Shown: positions 4,690 through 23,631 of the stretch, piece after piece
Position numbering within the stretch: position 1 is the stretch's first letter
Layout of the letters: each line of letters opens with the position of its first letter
Assembly (NCBI GenBank): GCA_947453225.1
Contig: CANGFV010000001.1
Coordinates: 2,737-66,736, forward strand
DNA: 64,000 nucleotides
From: Pseudomonadota bacterium
GTDB lineage: Bacteria > Pseudomonadota > Gammaproteobacteria > Steroidobacterales > Steroidobacteraceae
Direction: 5' to 3'
Position numbers and translations under genes: made by a program
Notes under the pieces: model-generated
What the model saw: only the letters and a program-made list of their open reading frames with translations
Database searches by the model: none
Told to the model about the DNA's origin: nothing

Positions 4690-5883
4690 ATGATTCGTTT
4701 GCTCACATTCACAAATTTATATCCAGATCCCGTGAGGCCGCGGCATGGGATTTTCGTTGAGCATCGTCTGCGGAAATTGGTTGCAACAGGCAAGGTTGAG
4801 GCACAGGTTGTTTGCCCAGTACCATGGTGCCCATTGCCTCTAAATAAAAAATGTACGCAATACCGAATACATGATGTTCCATTGAAGGAAGTGCGTGACG
4901 GAATTGTGGTTCATCGTCCACGCTACTGGGTTGTACCGGGTATCACTAGTGCCATTAATCCGTGGAGTATGGCACGTGTCGGTATGGCGATGATCAAAAA
5001 TATCGTCCGCGAAGGATATGACTTTGATGTAATAGACGCGCAGTATGTTTATCCAGATGGTATTGCAGGCGCATTGATCGCCGCCAAATTGGGTAAGCCA
5101 GTTACATTCACAGCCAGGGGTTCAGATGTGAATGTGGCATTACGGCAGGGTATACCTACAAGATGGTTTAGGCATGTGCAGCAGCAAGTTGCAGCATTTA
5201 TTAGTGTTTCTGAGGCGCTTAAAAGTGGGCTGATAAATGCAGGTGCTGATCCAGTGCGTGTACACGTTATTCGTAATGGTGTCGATCTTGAGTTATTTAG
5301 TGAGCGTGACAGGCTATACGTAAAGCAGCGTCTACAGATAAATAAAAAAACAATTCTGTCTGTGGGTAATCTAATTTATGAAAAAGGCCATCATTTGGTG
5401 ATACAGGCTATGACTCAATTACCGCAAGTGGAGTTGATAATCATTGGTAGCGGTATACAGTTGTCATTCCTTCAAAGCTTGGCTATGCGGCTTAATGTTG
5501 CTGATCGTATTCGTTGGGTTTCGCATGTGAACCAATCACAGCTTGCTGAATTCTATTCGGCAGCAGAGGTTACTGTTCTGGCTTCTAGTAGGGAGGGGAT
5601 GCCGAATGTATTGCTGGAGAGTCTTGCTTGCGGCACGCCTGTTGTAGCCACCGATGTCGGGGGGAGTGCGGAGATTGTTGCAGATGCAGCTGCGGGTTTA
5701 TTGATTCAGGAGCATAGTGCCACCGCTATTGCTAAGGCTGTAAAAAAGTTGCTGGACTATCCCTTGGAGCGTGCTGCCACGCGTGCTTATGCACTGCGCT
5801 TCAGTTGGCATAACCCTATTACTCAGCAGGTGGCTTTACTTGAGCAAGTAGTTGCTGAACATAAATTAAAAAGGGCTGGATAA
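4690..5883 (+). CDS. GT4 glycosyltransferase
   Basis: GT-B fold hallmarks: C-terminal SSREGMPNVLLESLACGTPVVATDVGG (EX7E-type block). About 400 aa. Confidence 0.85.
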   Translation: MIRLLTFTNLYPDPVRPRHGIFVEHRLRKLVATGKVEAQVVCPVPWCPLPLNKKCTQYRIHDVPLKEVRDGIVVHRPRYWVVPGITSAINPWSMARVGMAMIKNIVREGYDFDVIDAQYVYPDGIAGALIAAKLGKPVTFTARGSDVNVALRQGIPTRWFRHVQQQVAAFISVSEALKSGLINAGADPVRVHVIRNGVDLELFSERDRLYVKQRLQINKKTILSVGNLIYEKGHHLVIQAMTQLPQVELIIIGSGIQLSFLQSLAMRLNVADRIRWVSHVNQSQLAEFYSAAEVTVLASSREGMPNVLLESLACGTPVVATDVGGSAEIVADAAAGLLIQEHSATAIAKAVKKLLDYPLERAATRAYALRFSWHNPITQQVALLEQVVAEHKLKRAG

Positions 5884-5899
5884 TCTCCTGAGTATATCC

Positions 5900-7102
5900 A
5901 TGCGTATTCTGCACATTTTTGATCATTCTCTACCGGTACAAAGCGGTTATTCATTCCGCAGTGCTGCCATTCTGCGCGAGCAGGCCGCGCGAGGCTGGCA
6001 GACATTTCAAATAACCAGTAGTAAGCAGGGCGAATTCATTCAAGAAATGGAGCGCGCTAGTGGGTTAGACTTTTACCGAACGCCACTCTTGAAGTCATCC
6101 ATTTTTGATCACCCAGCATTAGATCAGATAAATGTCGTTCGCTCGCTACGTCGAAGACTGCGTAAGGTGATTAAGGAGACTCGTCCAAATATATTGCATG
6201 CTCATTCTCCATGCCTAACTGGGTTGGCGGCGCTTGGCTTGGGTGTGCCGCTAGTATACGAGATGCGTTCGTCATGGGAAGATGCAGCCGTATGTAATGG
6301 ACAGACTACTGAAGGTAGTCTTCGTTATCGTTTATCCAGAGGTCTGGAAACTTATCTGTTAAGAAGAGCCAATGCTGTGACCACCATATGCGAGGGGCTA
6401 CGTTTGGATATATGTGAACGTGGTGTACCTCCTGATATCATCACAGTAATTCCTAATGCGGTTGATATTGAAAGATTTTCAAAACCATTACCTTTGAGTG
6501 AGAGCATTCGTGCCCGCTATGGTTTGCAGGGTAAGGCAGTATTAGGATTTGTAGGTTCATTCTATGCCTGGGAAGGATTATCCTTATTAGTTGAGGCGCT
6601 AGCATTATTATTAAAGCAGCGAGATGACGTTATGCTTTTGCTCGTAGGCTCAGGGCCTGACGAGAGTGCAATTAGAACTACGATCGACCGTATGAACTTA
6701 AATGATAAAGTTATCTTGACTGGTCAGGTCAAACAAGCTGAAGTGGATGCTTTGTATTCTGCTGTGGATGTTCTGGTCTATCCGCGCCTGCCTATGCGTC
6801 TGACTGATATGGTGACCCCACTTAAGCCGCTAGAAGCGATGGCACTCTCGAAGGTATTTATCGCTTCTGATGTAGGCGGGCATCGCGAGCTGGTGACTCA
6901 CGAAAAAACTGGAATACTATTCAAGGCAGGTGATGCGCATGCATTGGCTCAGGCCGCTGCTCGCTTATTAAGTGACGCTACATTATCTCAACACTTGGTC
7001 TCGGCTGGCTTATCCTTCGTTCGTGAAGAAAGAACCTGGGCTAAATCAGTCGCGGGTTACGAGCGGGTTTACACTAATCTGTTGCAATTGGGGCAACTCT
7101 AA
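5900..7102 (+). CDS. GT4 glycosyltransferase, resembling the PEP-CTERM/exosortase-A-associated (Daro_2409-like) family
   Basis: N-terminus MRILHIFDHSLPVQSGYSFRSAAILREQAARGW, plus a C-terminal GT-B nucleotide-sugar-binding block (PLKPLEAMALSKVFIASDVGGHRE). Confidence 0.85.
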   Translation: MRILHIFDHSLPVQSGYSFRSAAILREQAARGWQTFQITSSKQGEFIQEMERASGLDFYRTPLLKSSIFDHPALDQINVVRSLRRRLRKVIKETRPNILHAHSPCLTGLAALGLGVPLVYEMRSSWEDAAVCNGQTTEGSLRYRLSRGLETYLLRRANAVTTICEGLRLDICERGVPPDIITVIPNAVDIERFSKPLPLSESIRARYGLQGKAVLGFVGSFYAWEGLSLLVEALALLLKQRDDVMLLLVGSGPDESAIRTTIDRMNLNDKVILTGQVKQAEVDALYSAVDVLVYPRLPMRLTDMVTPLKPLEAMALSKVFIASDVGGHRELVTHEKTGILFKAGDAHALAQAAARLLSDATLSQHLVSAGLSFVREERTWAKSVAGYERVYTNLLQLGQL

Positions 7103-8165: not shown

Positions 8166-10001
8166 TTAATTGGTGATCATAGGGCTTTTAGTATGCTTCT
8201 GCAGCCATGCTTCTAGCATGGCCAAGTCCCAAATCGCATAACCAAAGTATGAGGCGTGTCCTGCTTGATGTTCTTTGATTATGTTGTCAATAAAGTTATT
8301 CTGAATAATTTTTCGTTTCTTCAGGTCATGAAGATACGAGTAGATCATATCTTTCAAAGCTCTGTGCGTTTTTAGCCATAAGCCAAAGGGTAAGCCAAAG
8401 CCGTGTTTTGGTTTGTTGATAATCTCCGCAGGTAAGAAACCTGCCATTGCTTTCTTGTAAAACGATCTTAGCTCCATACCCTCAATTTTTTTGTTGGGTG
8501 GAATTTTAATTGATAAATCGACGACTCGTTGATCGAGCATCGGATAGCTGACTTTGACGCCTGCCAGTTCACACATGGTGCCCACTTTTCGGAGATCATT
8601 ATCCGAAAGAGTAAAGTGCCAGTCGTAGAACAGCATCTGGTGTAGCATGATGTTTGAAGGCGCTAAACGGTAGACATCATCCATTGTGCCAATGGGAGCT
8701 CTTGGGTTAATTGATTTGGCGAATTCAGGCTCGAGCATGGTTTCAGTGCCATTTCGATAGACGAAATTCCATGACTCGAGTCTCTCTGGTAGGGGAATCT
8801 TGGCCTGATCTACGTAACTTCGGAACTTTCGTAAGGGTGTAATCCCCCCGTCTGCTGGAAACATCTTTGAGAGGGGTTCAATTAAGTGGTGTCGCCATGC
8901 TGATGGGATGCGTTGATAAAGCTCAAACACGCTCTGTTTTACATAGCGTTCATTGCCTCCAAAAATTTCATCGCCACCATCTCCGGCCAGTAGGTGGTTG
9001 ATACCCTGTTCCCGGGCCCGTAGTGCGCAAAAGTAAGTGGGCACTGCAGATGAGTTTCCGAAGGGTTCGTCATAGGCTTGAGCGATTAGGGGGAATGCCG
9101 AGACGACGTCCTCAGGAGTGACGTGATATTCAAAGGGCTTGCATTTGAATTGCTTCGAGGCAATCCGTGCATAATGTAGTTCGTCATATGCATCTACACC
9201 AAACCCCATAGAGAATGTTCGGGCGGGTGTCTTACTGACTTTGGCTAGCATACCGGTCACGCTTGAGCTGTCCAGTCCACCACTTAGGAATGCACCGGTG
9301 TGTTCATCAGGTGAGCACTGTTCTACCGCGCTTTGCAGGCCTTGGTGTAGTTCGTCTTTCCAGTCTGCGAAATGGTCTTCTCCTTGCGATTCGATAAACT
9401 TTGGTTGCCAGTAGCGATGCATGGCTAATTGACCCTTTTCAAAGATAGCCATGGTGCCGGGGCGTAGTTTATGAACTCCCTCATAGATCGTATTGGGGGC
9501 AGGAATCATGTGCATGAGCAGAAAGTCGTATAAAGCTTGCTGACTTATGTTGAATTTGCGTAGGGGTGAGTGCGCCAGTGATTCAGCTGAGGTGCCAAAA
9601 CCGATGGCGCCATCACTTACGGTATAGGCCATCCGTTCGATCCCCATGCGGTCGATGGCCAGAACCACCCGGCGTTTTCTAGAGTCGATAAGGGCTAGGC
9701 TAAATCCTCCTTGAATATGGCTTAGGAAGCCATCGCCGAATCGACGATATACATAAAGCAGGGTCTCGGCAGGGGTACCATGTATCGGGTCAGCGCCGGC
9801 GTGGTTCCATTGAGCCTGACCGTTTATGATCGCCACCACGCCCGAGTCACTGGCAATGGAAGGACCCGCTACGGCGTAGCTAAATTGTGGGTCATTAAGT
9901 TTCGGGGTGATGGGCATTGATCCCAGCTCAGTGAGATACTGTTGCCAGCCCAATTGGCCTAAACCAGATCCTGTTATTCCGGCAAATCCCAATAATTTCA
10001 T
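8166..10001 (-). CDS. Asparagine-synthase-family protein lacking the N-terminal catalytic Cys
   Basis: PP-loop SGGLDSS and an AsnB synthetase domain are present (AGDGGDEIFGGNERY). The N-terminus is MKLLGFAGITGSG rather than MCG. Confidence 0.85.
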   Translation of the reverse strand: MKLLGFAGITGSGLGQLGWQQYLTELGSMPITPKLNDPQFSYAVAGPSIASDSGVVAIINGQAQWNHAGADPIHGTPAETLLYVYRRFGDGFLSHIQGGFSLALIDSRKRRVVLAIDRMGIERMAYTVSDGAIGFGTSAESLAHSPLRKFNISQQALYDFLLMHMIPAPNTIYEGVHKLRPGTMAIFEKGQLAMHRYWQPKFIESQGEDHFADWKDELHQGLQSAVEQCSPDEHTGAFLSGGLDSSSVTGMLAKVSKTPARTFSMGFGVDAYDELHYARIASKQFKCKPFEYHVTPEDVVSAFPLIAQAYDEPFGNSSAVPTYFCALRAREQGINHLLAGDGGDEIFGGNERYVKQSVFELYQRIPSAWRHHLIEPLSKMFPADGGITPLRKFRSYVDQAKIPLPERLESWNFVYRNGTETMLEPEFAKSINPRAPIGTMDDVYRLAPSNIMLHQMLFYDWHFTLSDNDLRKVGTMCELAGVKVSYPMLDQRVVDLSIKIPPNKKIEGMELRSFYKKAMAGFLPAEIINKPKHGFGLPFGLWLKTHRALKDMIYSYLHDLKKRKIIQNNFIDNIIKEHQAGHASYFGYAIWDLAMLEAWLQKHTKSPMITN

Positions 10002-11354: not shown

Positions 11355-11606
11355 ATGACGACTTTAGAGCAAGTAAGAAATATCTTGCGTGATGCATTAA
11401 GTTTGGGAATAAGGGCGGATGTGCTTGATGCAGCCTCTCCATTGCTGGGCGCTATTCCGGAATTCGACTCGATGGCTGTAGTGGCCGTCCTCACAATGCT
11501 GGAAGATCAGTTCGGCTTTACAGTAGAAGATGATGAGGTTTCGGCTGATGTCTTTCAAACGATGGGTGCACTAGTGGAGTTTGTTGATAGGAAGTTGGGT
11601 GCGTGA
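11355..11606 (+). CDS. Acyl carrier protein
   Basis: 83 aa, acidic, with phosphopantetheine-site motif FDSMAVV. A 4-nt overlap links it to the downstream hydrolase gene. Confidence 0.8.
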   Translation: MTTLEQVRNILRDALSLGIRADVLDAASPLLGAIPEFDSMAVVAVLTMLEDQFGFTVEDDEVSADVFQTMGALVEFVDRKLGA

Positions 11607-12418
11607 AGCGTGCACAAGTATCTGCTGAGTTTATTGGAGAGGCTGGTCAGCGTATTTTTGTATTAGCGCATCATCCTGAGCAATTTTCGGGAAGGTGCGT
11701 GCTTGTTTGTCCTCCATTTTCGGAAGAAATGAACAAGTCTCGTAGAATGCTAACTGAGTTGGCCCAGCATCTGGTTCAAGGAAATATTGGGCTAGTCATA
11801 CCTGATTTATATGGGACCGGTGATAGTGAGGGAGACTACGTAGATGCTAGCGTGACTCGCTGGACGGATGACCTGGCTCAGACAGAAAAATGGGTAGAAA
11901 GCCGGGGATGGCGAATTGAATCAATTCTAGGTATTCGGTTCGGATGTTTACTGGCAACAAATTATGCCGCCAAATTTACTAAACCCAAGGCGAGTTTGGT
12001 GTTCTGGCAACCTGTACTTGATGGTCGAAAGGCGCTCGATCAGTTCTTACGCTTAAGAGTAGCCGCCTCTTTGATGGCTGACATAAAAGAAACCGTGAGT
12101 GGCTTGAAAGATCGGATTGCTACTGATAAGACCTTAGAGATTGCAGGTTATTCAATTTCAGAGCAAATGGCCAAAGAAATGGAAGTTTTAAAATTAGACG
12201 ATGGCATAAACAAAACAACGGAAAAATTACATTGGTTTGAGGTGTTGCGTGATGCTGATGCGGTTATGCCGCTGCCAGTAGAAAAGACGATTGAGAAAAT
12301 TGCAAATGTAAATTTACAGGCTGTGGTAGGTGATCAGTTCTGGGTCTCAACTGAAATTACTGTTAATCGTGAGTTGATCAATAAAACAACAATCTTATTG
12401 AGTGATGTTGGGCCATGA
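11603..12418 (+). CDS. Alpha/beta-hydrolase-fold protein, resembling exosortase-A-system-associated hydrolase 2
   Basis: Alpha/beta-fold pattern (VLVCPPFSEEMNKSRR ... ILGIRFGCLLA). It sits between the ACP and hydrolase 1 genes and overlaps both. Confidence 0.7.
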   Translation: MKRAQVSAEFIGEAGQRIFVLAHHPEQFSGRCVLVCPPFSEEMNKSRRMLTELAQHLVQGNIGLVIPDLYGTGDSEGDYVDASVTRWTDDLAQTEKWVESRGWRIESILGIRFGCLLATNYAAKFTKPKASLVFWQPVLDGRKALDQFLRLRVAASLMADIKETVSGLKDRIATDKTLEIAGYSISEQMAKEMEVLKLDDGINKTTEKLHWFEVLRDADAVMPLPVEKTIEKIANVNLQAVVGDQFWVSTEITVNRELINKTTILLSDVGP

Positions 12419-13263
12419 ATGAGTCAGTGGTCAATTTTGATTGTCATAGTGATCGGCTAATCGGAATTTTGCATCAACCGCTTGGGGCTCAAAATAAAAT
12501 AGGTGTCGTTATTGTTGTTGGAGGCCCGCAGTATCGAGTAGGTAGTCATCGACAATTCACTATCATGGCTCGTGCCTTCGCTGCGGCGGGGTACCCAACT
12601 TTACGTTTTGATTATAGGGGGATGGGCGATAGTGAAGGTGAGTTTAAAGGGTTTGAATATATTGACGATGATATTAAATCCGCTATAGACGCCTTGGTTA
12701 GGGAAAGTCCAAAAATTGATGGTGTCGTGCTTTGGGGATTATGTGATGCTGCTTCGGCCTGCTTAATTTATGCTAATCAAAAAGATGAGCGAGTGAAGGG
12801 AATGATCTTGGCAAACCCGTGGGTCAGAACTGCTTCTGGGGAGGCCAAGGCTTATATAAAGCATTATTATCTTCAAAGGGTTTTGCAGAGGTCGTTCTGG
12901 ATCAAATTATTTTCCGGGTCATTTAAATTTAAAAAATCAATTTTTAAGTTGTTATTTCTTGCTAAGAATTCTCGTGTTCATAGCTGTGGCTATTCTCTAA
13001 TAAAAAATTCTTATATAGATAGGATGCTTGCTGGCTTTGAATCAAGTGATTTGATGTTTTTATTTTTAATTTCAGATAATGATCTGACGGCTAAAGAATT
13101 TATTGAGCATACAAGAAATTGTGTTTCTTGGAAAAACACTATTTCTATTTCAAAAAAAAGTTCTCATGTTTTGATGGAAAAGTCAGACCATACTTTTTCA
13201 AGTCGAGATTCTTTAAATTCTATGGTTGCGCGCTGTATTGAATGGATTGGCTGTCTGCATTAA
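12415..13263 (+). CDS. Alpha/beta-hydrolase-fold protein, resembling exosortase-A-system-associated hydrolase 1
   Basis: VVIVVGGPQYRVGSHRQF, nucleophile elbow VVLWGLCDAASA, and late SDNDL and SDHTF motifs. The 3' third of the gene is conspicuously AT-rich. Confidence 0.75.
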   Translation: MNESVVNFDCHSDRLIGILHQPLGAQNKIGVVIVVGGPQYRVGSHRQFTIMARAFAAAGYPTLRFDYRGMGDSEGEFKGFEYIDDDIKSAIDALVRESPKIDGVVLWGLCDAASACLIYANQKDERVKGMILANPWVRTASGEAKAYIKHYYLQRVLQRSFWIKLFSGSFKFKKSIFKLLFLAKNSRVHSCGYSLIKNSYIDRMLAGFESSDLMFLFLISDNDLTAKEFIEHTRNCVSWKNTISISKKSSHVLMEKSDHTFSSRDSLNSMVARCIEWIGCLH

Positions 13264-13296
13264 AGGCAATCTTCTGTATTATAAGTTTATAAAAGA

Positions 13297-14349
13297 ATGA
13301 TTAAATACGTGAAAAATATCGAAGAAGTTAGGGATTATTTAGTAAGTTGCGAGCGCGACTTTTTTAATAGCTATGAATGGTATTCTAATTTCGTTGCAAA
13401 CGTAATTGCTGTTGATAAAGATCAGTATCGGTTTATTTGTTGTTTCCATGATGATAAGGATTGGTTCTCTATAGTCCCTGTTAGGCTAAAAAAAGAAAAA
13501 TTTGGATTTAGTGTTACCAGTTTAACTAATTACTATTCGCCAAAATATAAAATTCTTACTAATGGCTTGGCGCCGGATCGATTGGATCTGGTTTTGGAAT
13601 GCTTAGATGGGCTTGCTCCAAGCTGGGGTAAATTCACAATTGATTCACTAGATGAGGCAGACTGTTCTGAGTTAAAAAAGTCTGTTAATTTCTTTAAATA
13701 CCCATCAAGCAGGCTGTTTCATTTTGCCAATTGGTATCTCCCAGTGTTGGGGCGAACTTACGATGAGTATTTTTCTGAATTGTCACCCCGTGTTAAAAAT
13801 ACAGTTACAAGAAAATATAGAGCTTTCGAAAAGCTAGAGAATGCTGAAATTAAGATTTTTAAAGCTTTAGATAAGGTTGAAGCTGCAATAAATGATTTCC
13901 AAGCGGTATACAAAAACAGCTGGAAGCGCCCGGAGCCGTATCCAGAGTTTATTCCCGGATTAATTAAATTAGCTGCTGAGCAGCAAGCCTTAAGGTTAGG
14001 GATTATATATTTAAGGGGTGTTCCTATTGCCGCCCAGTTATGGTTTGTTGCTGATCAGACAGCATATATTTTTAAACTGGCTTACGATGAAGAATACAAA
14101 AAATACTCTGCAGGCACTATTTTGACTGCATCATTGATGAGACATGTTATTGATATAGATAAGGTAGAAGTGGTTGACTTTTTGTCTGGTGACGATGAGT
14201 ACAAAAAAGAGTGGATGTCATGTCGACGTGAACGCTTCTCGATTTGCTTTTATAACTTTTGGTCAATTTATGGGGCGTATATGGCAACGCTTGCTTTTTT
14301 AAGATTTTTTCTAAGCGCTTCAGGGTATATACGTAGGCTATGCAGATAG
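13297..14349 (+). CDS. FemAB-like / GNAT-fold acyltransferase (BioF2-like acetyltransferase domain type)
   Basis: About 350 aa. C-terminal block YIFKLAYDEEYKKYSAGTILTASLMRHVIDIDKVEVVDFLSGDDEYKKEW is typical of the CelD/FemAB-like family found in PEP-CTERM EPS loci. Confidence 0.7.
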   Translation: MIKYVKNIEEVRDYLVSCERDFFNSYEWYSNFVANVIAVDKDQYRFICCFHDDKDWFSIVPVRLKKEKFGFSVTSLTNYYSPKYKILTNGLAPDRLDLVLECLDGLAPSWGKFTIDSLDEADCSELKKSVNFFKYPSSRLFHFANWYLPVLGRTYDEYFSELSPRVKNTVTRKYRAFEKLENAEIKIFKALDKVEAAINDFQAVYKNSWKRPEPYPEFIPGLIKLAAEQQALRLGIIYLRGVPIAAQLWFVADQTAYIFKLAYDEEYKKYSAGTILTASLMRHVIDIDKVEVVDFLSGDDEYKKEWMSCRRERFSICFYNFWSIYGAYMATLAFLRFFLSASGYIRRLCR

Positions 14350-14477
14350 CTAATCATTTCTACTGTATTCATGTCGAAAATATGATTGATATCACATAAT
14401 GAAAATGGAAAGTTGATTCGCTTAGATATATTGTGTAAAAGGAAGCGGTAAAATCTCATTAGATACAGAGGTTTAAA

Positions 14478-15737
14478 ATGAATCGTCGTGAAGTTCTGGC
14501 TGGATCTTTACTATCCATGCTAGTGAGGCCGTCAGGTTTTGCAAGTGCCGCTGTGCCTTGTCCTCCGACTTCCCTCTCCCTTGATAAGGGGGACGTTGCT
14601 TATGCTACTACTTCATGCTTTTCTGGAGTTCCTCCGCTCTGGTATCAAAATATGCCAGACGCTACTTGGTCTAGCATAGCGTCTGTAGGAACTATAGATT
14701 CAGTAAAACCAGCTTTGCATCCCGGTGGCGTATATGAATCAAATGGTCCTATTATTGCTTGGGGTGGCGCAGCTTTTGATACTAAACGATCTGCCTTGAT
14801 GATTGGTTCTCAAGGTGGGCATGGGGATTATTATGGCAATGAAATGTATTCATTGTTAATTAACCAGAGTCAGCCTGTATGGCAGCGTATAACAGCGCCT
14901 AGATATGCATTTAATTCAACTGAGCCTTATATGGATGATATGTCCCCTCGTGCGGTACATAGCGGATCACAAATAGTATATGCAGAGAATGTAGACAAAT
15001 ATGTGTTAGCTATGATGCCTTTCATGGCGCCAAATGGAAATTCATCTAGAAAATTATTTGCATTTGACTGTAATACAAAAACTTGGGGAGAGATGCAATC
15101 TCCTCCATCAGGGGATTCTGGCTATGCGACAGGGTCACAAGACGCTTATGGTGGGAGTTGTTATGATCCTGTGACGCGTTCTATTTGGATGGTTCAGTCA
15201 TCCTCGTGGAGATCAACTTGTAGATTTGATCCTTCTACTGGTTTATATACTGTATTTGATATTTTCAATAACCAGGGTTTTGATGGGGTTGCAGCCTTGT
15301 CACCATCAAAAAGAATAATGATTTATTTAAACGGGCATGTACATGGGCATGATGGTAGTTTCGTTTGGCTAGATCTGAATAAACCAGAGGCAGGCTGGCA
15401 AACCGCAGCATCAATTTCTGGGTCTCCACTAAGTGGTAGAGGATCATCTCTTGTTTGGCATGAAGGTTCTTCTGCCTTTGTTGGATGGAGAGGCTCTGGG
15501 GCTGGGCTTGTCAAGTTGGTTCCTCCTAGTAACCTTTATTCAGGCGACTGGAGGTGGGTGGATATTAGTCCCGGTAGTTCAAATAAGATAAGTCCGACGA
15601 AAGCAAATAATACTGGCACCTATGGTCGTTTTGCGCTTGCAACAAATATTTCAAACTCAGGTCGTGACTGCCTTATCTTAATCAATGCATCAACAGAGCC
15701 AACGTTTGTGTTTAAATTGCCGGTTGGCGGGTTATAA
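14478..15737 (+). CDS. Secreted protein of unknown function with a Tat-type signal; possibly beta-propeller/Kelch-like
   Basis: MNRREVLAGSLLSMLVRPSGFASA (RR-x-hydrophobic motif, then an h-region and AxA). A good RBS (agaggt) lies upstream. Recurring Gly/Trp-rich strand-like segments are present. Confidence 0.6.
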   Translation: MNRREVLAGSLLSMLVRPSGFASAAVPCPPTSLSLDKGDVAYATTSCFSGVPPLWYQNMPDATWSSIASVGTIDSVKPALHPGGVYESNGPIIAWGGAAFDTKRSALMIGSQGGHGDYYGNEMYSLLINQSQPVWQRITAPRYAFNSTEPYMDDMSPRAVHSGSQIVYAENVDKYVLAMMPFMAPNGNSSRKLFAFDCNTKTWGEMQSPPSGDSGYATGSQDAYGGSCYDPVTRSIWMVQSSSWRSTCRFDPSTGLYTVFDIFNNQGFDGVAALSPSKRIMIYLNGHVHGHDGSFVWLDLNKPEAGWQTAASISGSPLSGRGSSLVWHEGSSAFVGWRGSGAGLVKLVPPSNLYSGDWRWVDISPGSSNKISPTKANNTGTYGRFALATNISNSGRDCLILINASTEPTFVFKLPVGGL

Positions 15738-15811
15738 AAAATAGCTCGACAACTTCGGCATCGTTTTGCTGATACGGATTGACCTAAATTAATTGTGGAA
15801 ATTAAAAGATT

Positions 15812-16597
15812 ATGAATTTCATTACCTCCACAATAAAAAATTATTTATTCTGTGATTCTTTTTTTTTTAAAAAAGATAAAATCAAGTCAATAAAAATAAT
15901 CGTTTTAGTTTTTTTATTTTCCGTGCAGCCAGTGCATGGGTATGATTTTGTTCCTTCTGAATCGGAATGGCTTAGTTGGCCAGACTATTGCAAGGCTAGG
16001 TACGTCACTCTCCCCATTGGTGAAAGCTCTGAGTGGGCTCGTGAGGTTAGTCAGGAAAGAATTGCTTTAGCGCGTAAAAGTATTGGTGACGTATTCACAC
16101 ATGTGCATCACTATTGTGCAGGAGCAGCTTGGGTTAATAGAGCAAACATATCATTTGATGATGCCGAAAAAAAAGAGTTTTATCGAAAGGCAATCGATGA
16201 AATATCATACGTTCTAGAGAGGGTTGATAATAGTCAGCCAATAGTTAGCTCTATGATGATAAGGATTGCACAGGCTTATGAGGGATCTGGTGATTCATTA
16301 AATGCTGAAAGATTTTATTGGAATTCGGTTAAATTCTTTGCAGAGGATGGGTCAACCTACGCTTCTCTTGCGCTTTTTTTAAGAAAGAATAAAAGACTTT
16401 TAGAGGCGAGTCAGGTATTAACTGAGGGAGATGCTATTACTGAAGGAAATAGTGTGGATATCAACATAATGATGGCGCATGTTTTACTAGAATTAGGGCA
16501 AGGAAGAGACGCAGTAGCCTATGCGAAAAAAGCCTATACAATGGGTTATCCTCTCCCAAACTTAAAAGAAAAGTTAATAGAACTGAGCTTGTGGTAA
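15812..16597 (+). CDS. Hypothetical exported or membrane-anchored protein with TPR-like helical repeats
   Basis: Hydrophobic segment IKIIVLVFLFSVQPVHG. The C-terminal half has helical repeat character (AQAYEGSGDSLNAERFYWNSV..., AHVLLELGQGRDAVAYAKKAY). The start codon is uncertain. Confidence 0.45.
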   Translation: MNFITSTIKNYLFCDSFFFKKDKIKSIKIIVLVFLFSVQPVHGYDFVPSESEWLSWPDYCKARYVTLPIGESSEWAREVSQERIALARKSIGDVFTHVHHYCAGAAWVNRANISFDDAEKKEFYRKAIDEISYVLERVDNSQPIVSSMMIRIAQAYEGSGDSLNAERFYWNSVKFFAEDGSTYASLALFLRKNKRLLEASQVLTEGDAITEGNSVDINIMMAHVLLELGQGRDAVAYAKKAYTMGYPLPNLKEKLIELSLW

Positions 16598-16609
16598 AAA
16601 ATCTTTGGC

Positions 16610-17881
16610 ATGTATAAATCTACTCTTTCTGATCCTATGAAAAAAAGAGTGCTATTTGTTGCATTCCATTTTCCTCCAATACAGGGTAGCACTGGAGTAA
16701 TTAGAACCCTGTCCTTTGTTAATAATCTTAGTGAGAGCGGGCAGGATTGTGCTGTAATGACTGTGTTGCCTTCTGTGTATGAGGCAAAAAACAAATTAAA
16801 CTACACTCTATTAAATAAAAAAATTAAAATATTCAGAAGTGTTTGTTTCGACGCAAAAAAAACATTTTCTATATTCGGCAAGTATCCGCTTTTTCTAAGT
16901 ATTCCGGACCGATGGCAGTCATGGATTCCTTTTGCAATTCTAGATTATCTGGTTAGAGTTCGTAGATGGAAGCCTGACGTAATAATTTCTACATATCCAA
17001 TTGCAAGCGCACACTGGATAGCATACTTCATACACAGAATTACTGGTATTCCATGGGTTGTTGATCTAAGAGATCCCATGGCGCAGGATGGCTACCCTTC
17101 AGAAAAAAAAATTCATAGCGCATTTTTAAAATTAGAGGAAAAAATATTTACCTTTGCCAGTAAGGTTATATGCACAACGCCTGGTTCGAGGCTTCTCTAC
17201 CGAAATAGATACCCATTATTTCCAGAAAGCAACCTAGTTACCATCACTAATGGATATGAAGAGGAGGTTTTTCCTGAGTTAGTTTCAAAGCAGCATAAAA
17301 AAGCTAATGTTGTTAAGATTTTGCATAGCGGTTCTTTGCAGATTGAAGAGCGTAATCCACAAACATTCTTCCAGGCTTTATCTGAGTTAATTGCCGATAA
17401 TCTGCTTAAATCCAGAGTCGAAGTAACATTCAGGGCTGCGGGTGACTATGCTTTATATGAAAAGCTAGTTGTCGATTTTAATTTGGAAGATATGGTTTTT
17501 TTTAAACCGGCAATTTCTTACAAAGAAGCAACTGAGGAAATGCTTGATGCGGATATTCTTCTTTTGTTACAAGGTGGCTCCTGTAAATTCCAGATTCCAG
17601 CGAAGGTGTATGAGTATTTTTATGCACGTAAACCAATATTGGCTCTAACGGATCTCTCTAGTGATGCAGGTAATTTGTTAAGAGAAATGGATTTTTCTTG
17701 TGTGGCTAATATTGAGGATAAAAAAGAAATTAAATTAAATATTATTCAATGCGTAAATGAGCTAGAGTATGAAAAGTCAAAGTTGCCTTCCGCTGATAGG
17801 ATTAGTCTGTACTCTAGACGTAACTTAACTGCCCAGCTTTCTTATCAGCTTGATGATCTTATTAAAGATAAATATCAATAG
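16610..17881 (+). CDS. GT-B-fold (GT4-like) glycosyltransferase
   Basis: KKRVLFVAFHFPPIQGSTGVIRTLSF N-terminal domain, and a C-terminal PAKVYEYFYARKPILALT block. The alternative start at 16637 (MKKRVLF) is equally plausible. AT-rich composition. Confidence 0.7.
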   Translation: MYKSTLSDPMKKRVLFVAFHFPPIQGSTGVIRTLSFVNNLSESGQDCAVMTVLPSVYEAKNKLNYTLLNKKIKIFRSVCFDAKKTFSIFGKYPLFLSIPDRWQSWIPFAILDYLVRVRRWKPDVIISTYPIASAHWIAYFIHRITGIPWVVDLRDPMAQDGYPSEKKIHSAFLKLEEKIFTFASKVICTTPGSRLLYRNRYPLFPESNLVTITNGYEEEVFPELVSKQHKKANVVKILHSGSLQIEERNPQTFFQALSELIADNLLKSRVEVTFRAAGDYALYEKLVVDFNLEDMVFFKPAISYKEATEEMLDADILLLLQGGSCKFQIPAKVYEYFYARKPILALTDLSSDAGNLLREMDFSCVANIEDKKEIKLNIIQCVNELEYEKSKLPSADRISLYSRRNLTAQLSYQLDDLIKDKYQ

Positions 17882-17984
17882 CTGTTGACAAAATAAATTT
17901 AATTAAATTCGGTTATTGCAATATACCACTGCTCTATCTCTGATTTTTCTGGCATTTCAGATAAGTGTTAGAAGCCATAATTTC

Positions 17985-19157
17985 TTAGCCATCTACAACT
18001 TCTTTAGAGCCATTCCAAGGGTAATTAGAGGGCAAAGTTGTGTTTGGATATGGAATCGCATGACCACCAGGAAAGGTAATTGGATTATCCGAGCAAATAA
18101 TCTCGCTGTAACAGGCAAATGTGTCAACGCTCGGCCATGCGCCTTCCCATGCATTTTCGGTACGAGGTAATAGCTGAATTCCTGTGTAACCGTTGTTGCC
18201 AAGACGAGCATCAGTAGTTCCACCCCAGAGTAAAGGTGCTTGACCATATGGCGCAGACCACACTTTTATCATGCCTGTCCCGTTATATGTTCTGTTAACG
18301 TAAACTTCGTATACAGTCCACCCGTTAGATTCTATTCTTGGGTAATAGTTACTGGAAGGAGTCCATCCATACTGAACTTTTCCGAATCTATTAGCTAGCT
18401 CAGTGCTATTTGCTGGTCTGCTGGTGTTTGCGGGGTCTGCGTTATAAAAAACATGATGAGTATAATTGCTTAGGAAAAGGCCGGACTCATTAGTCCATCC
18501 TGCCGAGCACTTGGATGTTCCTGACGCAGAGGCAGAACTCCATCGGTATAACCCAGGATATGGACCGATGTTATCTCTAAAGAGTACAACCTCGTTTACG
18601 CCAAGGTCGGCAGCATTTCCATAACTTTGGTTTGGCATTGCAATAATGCAAATCTTAGAGCCATTAGCATAAGACCAATTGGCCCAAGTGGAATCTGCGT
18701 ACAACGCGAACTGAAAGTAAAATGAGTCTTTTTTTGTATTCTGAGTTTTAGTGCCAACGCCATCGAAAGAGAAATTCCATGATCCCCCGGCTTCATTCGC
18801 GCCCTCGGCTGAAAACAGATTGGAACGAAGGGATTTTCCACTTAGTTTCACTGATTCTTCAAGTTCGACTTTGTATCTTCCGGAGTTACCATATTTATCG
18901 TTAGCATATGCAGTCTGGTATGCTGCGTTTATTAAAGCATCTCTATTGGAAAATTCAGAAAAATCAGTAGCATAAAAAACGCCACTGCCCGTGGATCTTG
19001 CTTGCCAGTCCGCCCGTGATGGTATTAGGGAGCAGTTCGACGATGCTGTTGATCCGCCAATTACGGAAACCGATGCGGGAGGGCAGGGGGCTCCTCTAGC
19101 TCCCTCAGTTCCAAGAATCGTAGCTGTGCTTGCCAATAAAAACTTTCTGCGATTCAT
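17985..19157 (-). CDS. Secreted protein of unknown function with a Tat-type signal; possibly a jelly-roll (lectin/lyase-like) fold
   Basis: MNRRKFLLASTATILGTEGARGA signal followed by PCPPASVS. Rich in Trp, Tyr, Asn and Gly, with beta-strand character (WTVYEVYVNRTYNGTGMIKVW). Confidence 0.6.
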   Translation of the reverse strand: MNRRKFLLASTATILGTEGARGAPCPPASVSVIGGSTASSNCSLIPSRADWQARSTGSGVFYATDFSEFSNRDALINAAYQTAYANDKYGNSGRYKVELEESVKLSGKSLRSNLFSAEGANEAGGSWNFSFDGVGTKTQNTKKDSFYFQFALYADSTWANWSYANGSKICIIAMPNQSYGNAADLGVNEVVLFRDNIGPYPGLYRWSSASASGTSKCSAGWTNESGLFLSNYTHHVFYNADPANTSRPANSTELANRFGKVQYGWTPSSNYYPRIESNGWTVYEVYVNRTYNGTGMIKVWSAPYGQAPLLWGGTTDARLGNNGYTGIQLLPRTENAWEGAWPSVDTFACYSEIICSDNPITFPGGHAIPYPNTTLPSNYPWNGSKEVVDG

Positions 19158-19463: not shown

Positions 19464-20777
19464 CTAGCTAATAGCAGGAACCTTATCTCTGGCCTTTGGG
19501 TTTTGGTTAGGGTTATTGTTCTTGTTCGCAAGGTGCAAGCAAACGATCAAAAGTGAGGCAAGCCAGATACGAATTTCAGATTTTAGGTAGTCAACAAACA
19601 TGTCGCCAATCATTATTGCGGCAATCATTCCGACCAGGCCTGGGGTTATATTTCCGATTAGTCCGGTCTTGTTTTTTGAGCTTTTTAACAATTTTATTGC
19701 CATGGCTGACATCCAATAAAAATACATTAGATAGAAGGCAATGCCGAAGATGCCTTGTTCAACTAATAATGATAAAACTGTGTTGTGAGATGATCTGCCT
19801 CGGTTATCTTTAGTCCCTGTAAGGTATTTGTCGTCTAAGTATTGAGGGCTCAAAACGGCTGTGCAGCGATGTCCGCAGCCAAATGGATGACTCTTGAACA
19901 TGTCCAGTTGAGCTTTGGCAATTACAAGTCGGCTACTACCCGTGTCAACTCCTTCGACTTGTTCGCCGACTGCTTTCAATGTGTTCATTCGGTCCCAAAA
20001 GGCTTGGTTGGTTAGTGCAAAAAAGCCGAGTACTGCGAGTATGGAAAGTGCTCTAATGAGCCAACGATGATTTTTTTGTGTACATAGGTTAAAGGTCAAT
20101 CCACCTACCGCTGCTGCTAAAAATGCGCTACGGCTAGAGGTTAATATCAGTGCGTTGGCTACAAACGGCATACATAAAGTAATTAGTACTTTTTCCTTTA
20201 ATTTTGCGGTTAGGAAAATTGATGCCCCGATAAAAAGGGCAGACACCATTTGTAATGCTCCAGCATTGGCTTCATTGATGTCAGATCCTCCAAAACTCTC
20301 GAATCGACCTCCATCATATTCTGTATCAGCAACCCAGCCAAGGTAAGTACATCCTAGGATGTGTGCCCATAAGAACCAGTGAAGATGTTTCTCGGAATCA
20401 ATGGTTGTCGTAATAAGCCAAATGAGCATGGCGTACTTTATGTATAGAGCAATCAGTTCACTATGAGTTGTAGGGTCGAGAGCCCATGAGTATTGAACCA
20501 AAAGCCAAATACAAAATAAGCTGTAGCCAATAATGATGCTTTTTCTCCCCTCAGACTTATTTACCTGCGTTTTTTTCTTGTGTATTACGATGGCTACCAT
20601 CGTTACTAAGGCGGCTATTAACGACCAGCGCATGTCTGGGAGCATTGCTCCCCACCACCTTGAGGGTGGATGTAGGTAGTAGGTTGCAACGTAGGTTATA
20701 AGACCGAAAATCGGATGTCTTATAAAAGCGAGGCAGCACCCAATAATAAAACATGCAAAAAAGACGATACCAGTCAT
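19464..20777 (-). CDS. O-antigen ligase / Wzy-like polytopic membrane protein (exosortase-A-associated O-glycosylation-ligase-like)
   Basis: About 10 or more hydrophobic helices with a large periplasmic-type loop. Central block LTSSRSAFLAAAVGGL is typical of the Wzy_C/O-antigen-ligase domain. Confidence 0.75.
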   Translation of the reverse strand: MTGIVFFACFIIGCCLAFIRHPIFGLITYVATYYLHPPSRWWGAMLPDMRWSLIAALVTMVAIVIHKKKTQVNKSEGRKSIIIGYSLFCIWLLVQYSWALDPTTHSELIALYIKYAMLIWLITTTIDSEKHLHWFLWAHILGCTYLGWVADTEYDGGRFESFGGSDINEANAGALQMVSALFIGASIFLTAKLKEKVLITLCMPFVANALILTSSRSAFLAAAVGGLTFNLCTQKNHRWLIRALSILAVLGFFALTNQAFWDRMNTLKAVGEQVEGVDTGSSRLVIAKAQLDMFKSHPFGCGHRCTAVLSPQYLDDKYLTGTKDNRGRSSHNTVLSLLVEQGIFGIAFYLMYFYWMSAMAIKLLKSSKNKTGLIGNITPGLVGMIAAIMIGDMFVDYLKSEIRIWLASLLIVCLHLANKNNNPNQNPKARDKVPAIS

Positions 20778-20800: not shown

Positions 20801-22039
20801 TTATACTAACAATTCAGCGGGTTCTGGATGACTCAAAAACTTCAATGGGCTTGCTGTAAATCCATAAGCGCCCGATTGAAGTACTGCAACCAAGTCGCCT
20901 TCTTCGGCCTCAGCTAATTCCATACGATCAGCCAGTAAATCGAGTGGTGTGCATAAGGGGCCGACTACTGAGGCAATTTCTCGTTTATTGCCCTGAATAC
21001 GATTAGCAATAACCACTGGATAATTTTTACGTATCACTTGTCCAAAATTACCGGAAGCGGCGAGGTGGTGATGCAGTCCACCGTCGGTGACTAGATACAC
21101 TTGTCCACGAGAAATCTTACGATCATTTACTTTGCACACATAGATACCGGCTTCTCCTACCAGATAGCGACCTAATTCTATAATGAGTCTTGCCTGAGGC
21201 AGGGCGTGTCGAGCATGGGTAACTAGACTTTGAAAGTGTTCCTGCAATGAAATCAGATCCAGTATTTGTTCACCAGGAAAATAGGGAATGCCAAATCCAC
21301 CGCCAATATTTAGATGAGTCACTGGACCAGAGGCATGTTTAGCTAGTTCGATAGCAAGGTTCAGTGTTTTTGTTTGAGCCTCAATAATAGAGTCGGGGCG
21401 TAAATTCTGTGAACCGCTGTAAATATGGAATCCGCAAAATTCCAATTGAGTGGTTGCAAGATCGCGTAGTACTTGAGGTACTCGTTCAGCGTCGATACCA
21501 AACTGCTTTGGTCCGCCGCCCATCTTCATGCCTGAAGCCTTTAACTCAAAGTCGGGATTAACGCGAATAGCGATTCGGGTTTTACGGCCTGTGGTTTTGG
21601 CATATTGATTAAGAATTCGAATTTCGCGTTCAGATTCCACATGTACGGTAATACCTGCTACTGCTGCGCGGTGGAGTTCAGACTCTGTTTTTCCTGGGCC
21701 CGCCAGGCTTATGTCTTGTGGATGCGCACCAGCATCTAGAGCAACATCCATTTCTTGAGTGGAAGCAACATCTACGCCGTCAGTTAAGGACACCATGTGT
21801 CTTACCACTGCAGACATCGGATTGGCTTTCATAGCGTAGTTAAGCGCTATATCTTTAGGCAGGATGGCACGTAACTGCTCAATTTTGCGTGTCATGACGC
21901 TTTTGTCGTACACATAAAATGGGGTGCGGCCAACTTCTGCTGCAATTTGCGATATTTTGTGTCCGCCAACGACCAACTCGTCATCCTTGACGCTGAACCA
22001 GGGATGTGGGGCATGTTGAGCGCTGATAAAAATGCTCAT
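20801..22039 (-). CDS. PLP-dependent decarboxylase (DAP/ornithine decarboxylase fold), exosortase-A-associated type
   Basis: PLP-Lys motif YAMKANP, GGGFGIPY glycine loop, C-terminal beta-barrel with VVGPLCTPLD. A 4-nt overlap links it to the upstream ligase gene. Confidence 0.9.
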   Translation of the reverse strand: MSIFISAQHAPHPWFSVKDDELVVGGHKISQIAAEVGRTPFYVYDKSVMTRKIEQLRAILPKDIALNYAMKANPMSAVVRHMVSLTDGVDVASTQEMDVALDAGAHPQDISLAGPGKTESELHRAAVAGITVHVESEREIRILNQYAKTTGRKTRIAIRVNPDFELKASGMKMGGGPKQFGIDAERVPQVLRDLATTQLEFCGFHIYSGSQNLRPDSIIEAQTKTLNLAIELAKHASGPVTHLNIGGGFGIPYFPGEQILDLISLQEHFQSLVTHARHALPQARLIIELGRYLVGEAGIYVCKVNDRKISRGQVYLVTDGGLHHHLAASGNFGQVIRKNYPVVIANRIQGNKREIASVVGPLCTPLDLLADRMELAEAEEGDLVAVLQSGAYGFTASPLKFLSHPEPAELLV

Positions 22040-23631
22040 GCTTTACTTCCCTCGAAAAGAGTTCCTAGTTCAGTCGCAATACGGGGGCGGTCATACTTTC
22101 CATTTGGGTTGCGGGGAAGTGTGTCTCTGTATTCAATTTTTGCAGGCACCATGAATGCAGGAAGTTGTTTTTTGCACTCATTGAGAAGTTTAGTGGTGTC
22201 TTCTGCAATGCCAGGTGCGGTTGCGGCTACAACTACAATGGCCTGTCCTAGTGTTGGGTGCGGCACGCCAACCGCTGCCGCATCTGCAACTAAGCCAGTG
22301 GCAAAGATGACCTCTTCAATTTCACTCGGGCTGACGCGATAACCGGATGTTTTAATCATTTCGTCTGTACGACCTACAAAATAGAGATATCCATCTTCAT
22401 CCATTTTCACGGTATCTCCAGACCACACGGCCATTTCGGTCAGCACCAGACCGGTATCTTGGTTGGGTACGGGTTTGTATCGTTCGCCTGTTTTGATCGG
22501 ATCATTCCAGTAGCCTAGGGCCACTAAAGAACCGCGATGCACCAATTCACCTGGTTCGTGCGCAGCGCATGGACTGCCATCCGGTCTGACTACCATGATT
22601 TCTGCGTTAGGAATAGCTTTGCCCATCGAGCCTGGACGCCGGTCGATTTCTTCAGGCGGTAGATACGTTGATCTAAAAGCTTCAGTGAGGCCGTACATCA
22701 AGTAGGGTTTGGTGCTGGGTAGCGTTGAGCGCAGTTTAGCAAGAGTAGCGTTGGGCATGGCTCCACCTGAGTTGGTGATATACCGTAATGATTGTTTGGC
22801 TTCTTCCGGCCAGTCGAGGTCAGCCAACTGAGACCACAGGGGCGGAACACCGGCCAACCCCGTGATTTTATCTTTGGCGACTAGGTTAATAATGTCGCGT
22901 GGAAAGAGGTAGTCCATTAGGGTCACACTTGCCCCTACGTGAAACGCAGTAGTGAGTTGACTAAATCCATAATCGAATGACAGTGGTAGCACAGCCAGTA
23001 GTCGATCATCGGGTGTGTTGCCTAAATACTGCGCCACACTATGTGCGCCGGTCACCATGTTCCTGTGAGATAGAACAACGCCTTTAGGTTTTCCAGTGCT
23101 GCCTGAGGTGTAGAGGATGGCTGCCATGTCGGTGTCAATGACCCGATGTCTTTGCATGTTAGGTGCGGCGTCTATTGCGGTTTGCCAATTACATATTGCA
23201 TAGGGGGCAGTAGAGTTGACAGACTGGTTTGTTGTCTTATCAACCAGAATGACCTGTCGTAAGTCATGACAGGTGTTTAAGGTCTCTTTAAGAAGCTCGA
23301 ATCGATCGTTTGAGGTAACTAAGGCTCGCACATTGCAATCACGAAGAATGTGCTCGACTTGAGCAGGTTTAAGTACGGGATTGATAGGAACAAATACGCA
23401 GCCTGCCGCAACGGTACCAAAAATACTGACTACAGTTTCATATTGCTTCGGTAGGAAGATAGCGACGCGCTCTTGACGGTTGAGGTCGAGTGCCAATATC
23501 GCATTACAAAACGAATCTATGTAGTCCTGAAGCGCTCCATAAGTATAGGCCGACTGACGATGTCGAATAGCTATCCTATCAGGGGCATTTGCTGAGGAAA
23601 TTTCCGTTAGTTCATGGAGCAGAGTGGTCAT
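22036..23631 (-). CDS. AMP-forming acyl-CoA/acyl-ACP ligase (adenylate-forming superfamily), exosortase-A-associated type
   Basis: AMP-binding signature LYTSGSTGKPKGV; YGLTE; GDTVKMDEDGYLYFVGRTDEMIKTSGYRVSPSEIE; C-terminal PRNPNGK. Confidence 0.9.
   Translation of the reverse strand: MTTLLHELTEISSANAPDRIAIRHRQSAYTYGALQDYIDSFCNAILALDLNRQERVAIFLPKQYETVVSIFGTVAAGCVFVPINPVLKPAQVEHILRDCNVRALVTSNDRFELLKETLNTCHDLRQVILVDKTTNQSVNSTAPYAICNWQTAIDAAPNMQRHRVIDTDMAAILYTSGSTGKPKGVVLSHRNMVTGAHSVAQYLGNTPDDRLLAVLPLSFDYGFSQLTTAFHVGASVTLMDYLFPRDIINLVAKDKITGLAGVPPLWSQLADLDWPEEAKQSLRYITNSGGAMPNATLAKLRSTLPSTKPYLMYGLTEAFRSTYLPPEEIDRRPGSMGKAIPNAEIMVVRPDGSPCAAHEPGELVHRGSLVALGYWNDPIKTGERYKPVPNQDTGLVLTEMAVWSGDTVKMDEDGYLYFVGRTDEMIKTSGYRVSPSEIEEVIFATGLVADAAAVGVPHPTLGQAIVVVAATAPGIAEDTTKLLNECKKQLPAFMVPAKIEYRDTLPRNPNGKYDRPRIATELGTLFEGSKA

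Follow-up and report, generated by a model that had tools for sequence, protein, structure and literature searches.

The lipobox, LPXTG, PEP-CTERM and GlyGly-CTERM signals have each pointed the way to a specialised machine that handles the proteins bearing them, and in a single phage different receptor-binding or depolymerase domains are docked to the virion by an N-terminal peptide that they have in common. In bacteria of soil and wastewater, the XrtA-type polysaccharide pathway is what drives the formation of flocs and biofilms. Here, a stretch of 64,000 nucleotides of contig CANGFV010000001.1 from a bacterium of the Steroidobacteraceae (hereafter the window) was analysed, with attention to two genes, A and B, of its exosortase A (XrtA)-associated exopolysaccharide (EPS) locus. 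Their products begin with a common N-terminal module, consisting of a leader of the twin-arginine translocation (Tat) type and a segment, typically of 18 residues, bounded by two cysteines (hereafter the tag). This module is conserved and modular, is confined to cellular copies of the proteins concerned, and is tied to XrtA/EPS loci. With a probability of about 0.5, we read it as a Tat-type signal plus a disulfide-closable beta-hairpin, kept as a common handle on the phage-related and probably polysaccharide-active domains (cargos) of XrtA-type EPS loci.

Leader and Cys-bounded tag

When the products of both genes (Table 1) were compared by BLASTP, only residues 1-46 of A aligned with residues 1-43 of B (35% identity, E 3e-4 for this single comparison), and no further alignment was found beyond the first ~46 residues. 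The tag cysteines are C28 and C47 in A and C25 and C42 in B, and Shine-Dalgarno sequences lie 6-8 nt 5' of the ATG in both genes (AGAGG for A, AAGGTG for B). Likeness of their 5' DNA is confined to the codons of conserved residues, and recent copying of DNA between A and B is thus ruled out. The open reading frames (ORFs) and N-termini given in a first-pass annotation of this DNA were exactly reproduced, and its claim that the two proteins diverge after the shared N-terminus agrees with the BLASTP comparison. The PCPP-x-S tag that it proposed corresponds to a real shared segment, but the Pro before the Cys and the Ser of x-S both vary, and the motif runs on to the second Cys. Neither A nor B matched a family in Pfam or NCBIfam, the sole trace being Kelch_6 in A (E 0.039, below the cutoff), and no names for A, B or the small tetratricopeptide repeat (TPR) protein encoded between them were found in public sources.

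A and B are rare, with only 5-6 relatives each among 5.8 billion sequences. In what follows, related proteins are labelled P#### and loci from genome, metagenome or viral collections L###. The orthologues of A (P0002, 58% identical, ...AETAPCPPSQLSLSGKLASTSYTSC) and of B (P0009, 64% identical, ...TRSAPCPPSTVSITGGSIANSNC) retain leader and motif, and their loci are syntenic with the window (GNAT, A, TPR, GT4, B-type, Wzy_C), synteny being seen in L001, L003 and L010. The orthologue loci also encode two far more divergent carriers, at 14685-15932(-) of L001 (...GAISCPPSSVSITGGIPSRTTC) and at 5249-6484(+) of L003 (...ATKACPPNILSAYQGTTSTTSC). On aligning these six sequences, the twin arginine, C-P-P, one Ser and the second Cys are invariant; in a wider set of carriers, RR, C-P-P, G-G, the second Cys and one Ser three residues past the x-S never vary.

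A 45-position profile made from four N-termini was searched against 1.84 billion representative proteins, giving 41 matches at E<=1e-3, four of which are repeat artefacts and ~35 genuine, their extreme N-terminus fitting the whole profile. The Cys-Cys spacing is exactly C-x16-C (17 positions apart) in 37 of 39 carriers, C-x18-C being seen only in A and its orthologue (2/39), and the consensus can be written MKRR(D/E)F(L/I)-h-region-(A/G)(Q/A)(A/S/T)(K/R)-P-C-P-P-x-x-(V/L)-S-(V/A/I)-x-G-G-(T/S)(S/T)(A/V)(S/T)(T/S)x-C. A degenerate DNA pattern of the whole module (~43 bits, with an estimated chance expectation below 1 in 596 Gb) gave 45 matches in species-representative genomes (38 stretches), the gap length being divisible by three in all of them (random expectation, 6 of 16), 109 stretches in a metagenome collection and zero matches in 2.9 million viral contigs. 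The PCPP segment, which the first-pass annotation knew from two proteins, is hence kept in orthologues and present on many others, as found with both profile and pattern. A word-indexed search of 5.8 billion proteins with a 45-sequence tag profile yielded 786 candidates, none of them scored.

The genome matches all come from metagenome-assembled genomes (MAGs), mostly of Steroidobacteraceae and unclassified Gammaproteobacteria, together with Ramlibacter, Rubrivivax and other Betaproteobacteria; a few short tag-bearing contigs are binned to other phyla, probably by mis-binning. P0013, a 60-aa fragment in the representative library, is close to the A leader and has Phe in place of the first tag Cys (MNRREVLAGSFLFMLIRPSGSTNAAVPFPPASLQLDGG...C), and must be a natural variant without the Cys pair or else stem from a sequencing error.

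The leader cores of A (NRREVLA) and B (NRRKFLL) place a twin arginine near the N-terminus, in an n-region followed by an h-region of 11 residues and a c-region of the AxA type, in line with the signal peptide first proposed for them. Across the family, the second position after RR is F in 68/78 leaders and the third is L, I or V in 71/78, with D/E at the first. Four of eight typical family leaders score 17.4-21.5 bits against TIGR01409 (cutoff 16.7 bits), and the other four 13.2-16.0. In a search of the tag profile against PDB sequences, its first 24 positions matched best the Tat signal of CueO (E 0.005), followed by NapA, NirK (copper nitrite reductase) and a "Twin-arginine translocation pathway signal" protein, and its hairpin half had no match. 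Export of the tagged family by the Tat pathway, as predicted from these features, is well supported, and that of A and B is supported by homology. Position -1 relative to the first Cys is Pro in 74/76 carriers and position -3 is A, S or T rather than Leu; the Pro at -1 shows that the motif is not a lipobox and rules out a lipoprotein. Inspection by eye also ruled out the C-x-P-x-R motif of formylglycine-generating enzyme (FGE)/sulfatase systems, as there is no Arg at +4.

Cargo families and their phage relatives

Among the 136 tagged ORFs annotated in stretches found with the DNA pattern in genomes and metagenomes, 55 belong to a class named B' (ending in ...FIPCPQV), 29 are A-type, 24 are of a ~250-aa type, six of a ~700-aa type with a weak PcRGLX_1st match and three of a second propeller type; for eight the class is not known, and ten are truncated. 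The profile set adds the B-type P0032, the GH12-like P0016 and the Polysacc_lyase-like P0024 (weak, sub-threshold Pfam matches). The tag is borne by at least six protein families in uncultured bacteria. Comparison by hhalign limited the alignment of the A and B' families to columns 1-58 (99.1%) and that of the 250-aa type with B' to columns 1-50 (99.3%), and found nothing credible between the cargos of A and B. Since homology between families lies only in leader and tag, remote paralogy of A and B, which would have made their shared N-terminus ordinary homology, is ruled out. B and B' additionally share a segment, ADW..RS.G.GV...F, after the tag.

In 4 of 21 complete proteins of the 250-aa type the tag cysteines are the only ones present, which favours a disulfide within the hairpin, if they are oxidised at all. 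Two further features of tagged proteins were observed. The C-termini of the B' family (for example, in the divergent carrier of L001 and at 106-1347 of L034) end in a conserved FI(P/A)CP(Q/A)(V/A), with the Cys 3-4 residues from the end, and this PCP motif resembles the N-terminal PCPP. Moreover, a tagged class of ~430 aa (L041 1510-2793(-), L042 2236-3537(+), L043 4109-5410(-)) shows no similarity to the other classes and no Pfam match, its tag reading ...PCPPP(M/T)L(E/G)SDGG.(S/Q)(A/V)QNPC.

Cargo folds were explored on AlphaFold2 models built from shallow alignments, which were then compared by Foldseek, as the first-pass annotation had advised. The A model, of low confidence, is all-beta with repeated strand quartets (predicted local distance difference test, pLDDT, 55; predicted template modelling score, pTM, 0.63); it matches the Kelch domains of Keap1 and KLHL proteins (E ~1e-7, target-normalised TM 0.5-0.6) and also phage virion-structural and tail-fibre-type proteins in BFVD. 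For the poorer B model (pLDDT 43), the top matches are 5gmt (5e-5), 6kzk (1.8e-4) and 2zzj (2.2e-4), that is, jelly-roll polysaccharide lyases (PL) of families PL14, PL36 and PL20, and other cargos show sub-threshold matches to GH12, Polysacc_lyase and PcRGLX. The most likely role of the cargos is to act on the polysaccharide that the locus produces, by binding, trimming or modifying it. The earlier guess of EPS depolymerases or lyases fits the Kelch and PL matches and the phage relatives described below, but its footing is weak, as it consists of low-confidence models and sub-threshold matches.

Relatives of the A type occur on 29 IMG/VR contigs, matching from about residue 50 onward, and a leaderless relative, P0006, adjoins portal, Mu-F-like and capsid genes. 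Viral-contig relatives of B (L071), of B' (L055, L058, L066) and of the 250-aa type (L074) in turn adjoin A-type relatives, and no tag-like motif is present in any of these viral-contig loci. Apparent fusions of B' or B with A (P0008, a 1122-aa protein of L008, and L058) also have no tag at their internal junction. These untagged relatives and junctions indicate that the tag goes with export and not with catalysis.

Three phage or phage-like arrays encode cargos that instead have in common a short N-terminal peptide of their own: MTKNVTSKVWVRPNTNGRRYSK in L008, L009 and L007, MSWDI(K/L)Y(Q/K)T in L066, and M.I..SL.Y(K/R) in L074. Each joins the cargo at the tag boundary, directly before AP.WF in the A type and before ADW..RS in the B type. 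The cargo set is thus common to phages and cells, and the N-terminal module is exchanged according to the system, a clear case of host-phage domain exchange in which targeting modules are replaced. The array of L008 (3481-8754), L009 (1715-4108) and L007 (1321-1638) is a tight same-strand series of A-like and B'-like genes whose products all begin with the non-signal peptide MTK(N/D)VTSKVWVRPNTNGRRYSK. Upstream of it in L008 lies the 1122-aa protein, an apparent fusion of B'-like and A-like domains. The array, which probably encodes phage tail fibres or depolymerases, was not found in IMG/VR. Phage relatives turned up only in IMG/VR and metagenomic phage contigs: tblastn of A and B against GenBank phages gave no match, and PHROGs gave nothing for the cellular cargos.

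Gene neighbourhood of the tagged genes

Among 65 tagged loci that are 5 kb or longer, 57 have one or more EPS/XrtA-cassette markers. The commonest neighbour is an asparagine synthase-like amidotransferase (30/65), followed by hydrolase 1/2 and the small TPR protein (26/65 each), Wzy_C (21/65) and GT4 (12/65). Two or more tagged genes occur in 24 loci, typically B' and A in tandem, and the 250-aa type adjoins a Wzx-type flippase. No recurrent protease, oxidoreductase or secretion component was found among the neighbours.

The window itself displays the order hydrolases 2/1, GNAT, A, small TPR, GT4, B, Wzy_C, PLP decarboxylase and acyl-CoA ligase (Table 1), with XrtA-system amidotransferases (TIGR03108, 972 bits) and stp2/stp3 glycosyltransferases upstream. 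TIGR03100, TIGR03101, TIGR03099 and TIGR03098 all score above their curated cutoffs, as expected for an exosortase-A-associated EPS cassette, and the TPR and glycosyltransferase genes do lie between A and B inside such a locus, as had been annotated.

Table 1. Positions, within the window, of A, B, their parts and the surrounding genes
Feature	Position	Strand	Basis or remarks
Hydrolase 2 and hydrolase 1, exosortase A system-associated	11603..13263	+	TIGR03101 214 bits, TIGR03100 296 bits, both above cutoff
GNAT (Acetyltransf_6, FemAB-like) protein, kept in module	13297..14349	+	Pfam, synteny
Gene A, 419 aa: leader, tag and predicted Kelch-like beta-propeller cargo	14478..15737	+	ORF
A leader, aa 1-25, MNRREVLAGSLLSMLVRPSGFASAA	14478..14552	+	RR n-region, h-region, A-S-A c-region
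A tag (predicted hairpin), aa 27-47, PCPPTSLSLDKGDVAYATTSC	14556..14618	+	C-x18-C variant
A cargo domain, aa 48-419	14619..15737	+	Matched by viral-contig relatives from ~residue 50
Small exported TPR protein, family ending GYPLPGLRxKL	15812..16597	+	Domain match and homologue comparison
GT4 glycosyltransferase, kept in module	16610..17881	+	Pfam, synteny
Gene B, 390 aa: leader, tag and predicted beta-sandwich, lyase-like cargo	17985..19157	-	ORF
B tag (predicted hairpin), aa 24-42, PCPPASVSVIGGSTASSNC	19032..19088	-	Canonical C-x16-C
B leader, aa 1-23, MNRRKFLLASTATILGTEGARGA	19089..19157	-	Sequence
Wzy_C / PEP_O_lig_1-like membrane protein	19464..20777	-	PF04932 9e-19; TIGR03097 96 bits, below cutoff
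PLP decarboxylase and acyl-CoA ligase, exosortase A system-associated	20801..23631	-	TIGR03099 613 bits, TIGR03098 793 bits

Members of the small TPR family begin with a Sec-type signal peptide, end in GYPLPGLRxKL and have two Cys that are conserved. Homologues of the window protein were observed in L014, L023, L025, L029, L033, L034, L038, L040, L041, L045, L046 and L048; each of the two Cys positions is kept in 13-14 of the 16 proteins compared, and a subtype with the Cys placed differently is formed by the copies of the window and of L014. No specific curated family was found for it, only a weak match to the C-terminal part of PrsT. A predicted lipoprotein of ~178 aa with an FN3-like segment (LVGYRIYYGTTSS) was also seen in 15 tagged loci, for example at 6144-6680(-) of L084.

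Regarding base composition, positions 12000-18000 of the window (hydrolase-GNAT-A-TPR-GT4) have a G+C content of 0.37-0.40, which is lower than in the flanking DNA (0.44-0.48) and at 28-34 kb (0.51-0.54), and the module of tagged genes may have been horizontally acquired. Three asparagine-synthase-like paralogues are found in the window, at 59-1630, 2786-4681 and 8166-10001(-). Of these, only 2786-4681 passes the cutoff for the XrtA-system amidotransferase; both of the others are missing the first ~100-120 residues of the model, which make up much of its glutaminase domain.

Possible roles of the tag and comparison with known systems

In the mechanism that we infer, the leader, (K/N)RR-(D/E)-F-(L/I) with a mildly hydrophobic h-region and a small-x-small c-region, would direct export of the folded cargo through Tat, and the tag, C-P-P-x-x-[LV]-S-[VLI]-x-G-G-x6-C, would begin 2-5 residues past it. 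Signal peptidase I would cleave just before (K/R)-P-C-P-P, and in the periplasm the two Cys may close a beta-hairpin made of a strand, the G-G turn and a Ser/Thr-rich strand. The hairpin would then remain at the mature N-terminus as a common handle, through which a shared cellular component may recognise, retain or hand on the set of enzymes. The array-specific N-terminal peptides of phage cargos offer an analogy for this role. More tentatively, and with some doubt, the hairpin can be envisaged as the signal of a many-to-one sorting or tethering system of XrtA-type EPS loci, in which a dedicated component would bind or covalently process it. If so, the periplasm, the surface or the matrix would be armed with phage-related glycan-active enzymes, and the system would be an N-terminal counterpart to PEP-CTERM/exosortase sorting.

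Several observations weigh against the handle as read here. As to the leader, those of A and B in the window have no match to TIGR01409, and PF10518 (TAT_signal, cutoff 22.7 bits) stays below threshold throughout, its best score being 12.8 bits on P0009; Tat use by A and B consequently rests on RR-x-(F/V)-L and on family homology. As to the structures, AlphaFold2 gives no confident one for the tag (pLDDT <35 over the N-termini of A and B), the fold assignments of the cargos come from the low-confidence models and sub-threshold Pfam matches already described, and profile searches of the A, B' and 250-aa families against PDB sequences returned nothing significant. The DNA-pattern set fixes PCPP, GG and their spacing by construction, so only the profile-derived set is unbiased at those positions. 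Regarding a partner, unbiased clustering of all neighbouring ORFs brought up EPS-cassette genes only and no recurrent handler. The small TPR gene is adjacent in 7/11 blocks containing A, in 1/13 with B' only and in 0/6 with the 250-aa type; it follows the A cargo and not the tag, and the periplasmic TPR protein is therefore downgraded from a universal tag receptor to a weak candidate for a partner. Finally, at variable positions, tags of A and B' from the same locus are more similar (0.42) than those from different loci (0.30), a value reached by 146 of 10,000 random draws, with n = 7, two related MAGs included and gene conversion possible; this similarity fits a shared partner or gene conversion and argues only weakly for either.

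That two signal peptides simply resemble each other by chance can be practically dismissed. Signal peptides are short and alike in composition, and the pairwise E of A and B is only 3e-4, but the orthologues keep the tag, and the ~35 profile matches and the 45 and 109 pattern matches lie in frame at ORF starts with exact spacing. Passive inheritance is an unlikely explanation that nonetheless deserves attention: the leader, together with a protease-resistant, disulfide-stapled spacer ahead of a pre-folded Tat cargo, would have spread by recombination with no specific partner. Tat substrates require an accessible cleavage site ahead of the folded domain, which such a spacer would provide, and the tag invariably adjoins a signal peptide, no handler gene recurs beside tagged genes, and the within-locus similarity of tags is compatible with gene conversion. 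A mere spacer, however, needs no invariant C-P-P and G-G nor an exact C-x16-C across otherwise dissimilar cargo families, and the 5' DNA of A and B bears no sign of recent exchange.

Less probable still is a site of covalent modification anchoring the enzyme to membrane, matrix or partner, be it by an unusual thiol acylation or a thioether at the first Cys, by an intermolecular disulfide of the IgG-hinge CPPC type joining A- and B'-type proteins, or because the Wzy_C / 'PEP_O_lig' protein encoded nearby O-glycosylates the Ser/Thr-rich strand. In its favour, an invariant Cys lies 3-5 residues from the predicted mature N-terminus, beside a rigid Pro-Pro, and the second strand reads (T/S)(S/T)A(S/T)T. 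Wzy_C recurs in the tagged loci and matches, below cutoff, TIGR03097 ('putative O-glycosylation ligase, exosortase A system-associated'), genes of the A and B' types are often in tandem and sometimes fused, and B' has its conserved ...PCP(Q/A)(V/A) end. Against it, there is no lipobox, with Pro at -1 and no Leu at -3, the 250-aa type occurs as a lone tagged gene, and Wzy_C is equally well explained as an EPS polymerase. We give little credence to a second step of secretion, in which the hairpin would steer Tat-exported enzymes across the outer membrane, or onto surface or matrix, via a secretion or EPS-export channel. The cargos do resemble enzymes acting on extracellular polymer, related domains occur on phage contigs, the A model is similar to virion-structural and tail-fibre-type proteins, and Tat substrates such as P. 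aeruginosa PlcH are secreted onward by the type II secretion system (T2SS). Nonetheless, none of the genes recurring around tagged ones encodes a secretin, a T2SS component or an outer-membrane protein, T2SS signals are, to our knowledge, conformational and not linear tags, and many EPS operons instead encode periplasmic trimming enzymes.

The handle reading can finally be set beside described systems. Pfam, NCBIfam and PHROG hold no model covering the tag or most cargos, and literature searches on the tag, on a Tat leader with a conserved Cys and on exosortase with twin-arginine found no description of it. The leader resembles the Tat signals of TIGR01409 and PF10518 in its RR-x-F-L core, moderate h-region and small-x-small c-region. 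Those signals, however, end at the cleavage site, whereas the leader here is followed by a strictly conserved, Cys-bounded stretch of 18 residues, and both are found together on cargos that are unrelated to each other. Similarly to the lipobox, the Bacteroidetes lipoprotein export signal and YSIRK, the tag is a short motif beside the signal peptide found on many proteins of one genome, and it shares with signal-peptide-adjacent sorting motifs a key Cys near the mature N-terminus; it differs from the lipobox in the Pro at -1, the missing Leu at -3, the second Cys at fixed spacing and the G-G turn, and we know of no processing enzyme for it. PEP-CTERM/XrtA occupies the same gene neighbourhoods, with many cargos sharing one short signal and a similar membrane-proximal topology (motif, hydrophobic stretch, basic cluster), but PEP-CTERM is C-terminal and membrane-spanning and the tag N-terminal, after a cleavable leader. 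PEP-CTERM (TIGR02595) was not detected in A or B, whose soluble C-termini (...KLPVGGL and ...EVVDG) have no NCBIfam match.

Phage adaptor peptides appear on the same cargo families and at the same domain boundary in the L008/L009/L007, L066 and L074 arrays, and, unlike the cellular tag, they have neither a signal sequence nor a CPP...C motif. Dockerins and the C-terminal domains of the type IX secretion system (T9SS) are also small common modules on varied carbohydrate-active domains, serving assembly or secretion, yet they are larger, at 60-100 aa, mostly sit at the C-terminus, bind receptors that are known and show no sequence relationship to the tag. AlgL, PslG, PelA and BcsZ, polysaccharide-cleaving enzymes encoded inside the biosynthetic locus of their own polymer, illustrate the likely role of the cargos; they differ in their Sec signals, in having no common tag and in sequences unrelated to the cargos. 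A conserved sorting or processing motif beside a signal peptide and common to many proteins is thus a kind already known, and what appears undescribed is this motif, its pairing with a Tat leader, its set of substrates and its tie to XrtA loci. It singles out a set of uncharacterised families whose members would be exported to serve polysaccharide synthesis of the XrtA type, and the expression RR-x(17-30)-CPP-x6-GG-x6-C, or the profile, makes the substrate set easy to find and test. With an invariant core, fixed spacing, many cargos that are unrelated, repeated occurrence within a genome and confinement to certain lineages and gene contexts, the tag has the same signature as the lipobox, LPXTG, PEP-CTERM and GlyGly-CTERM.

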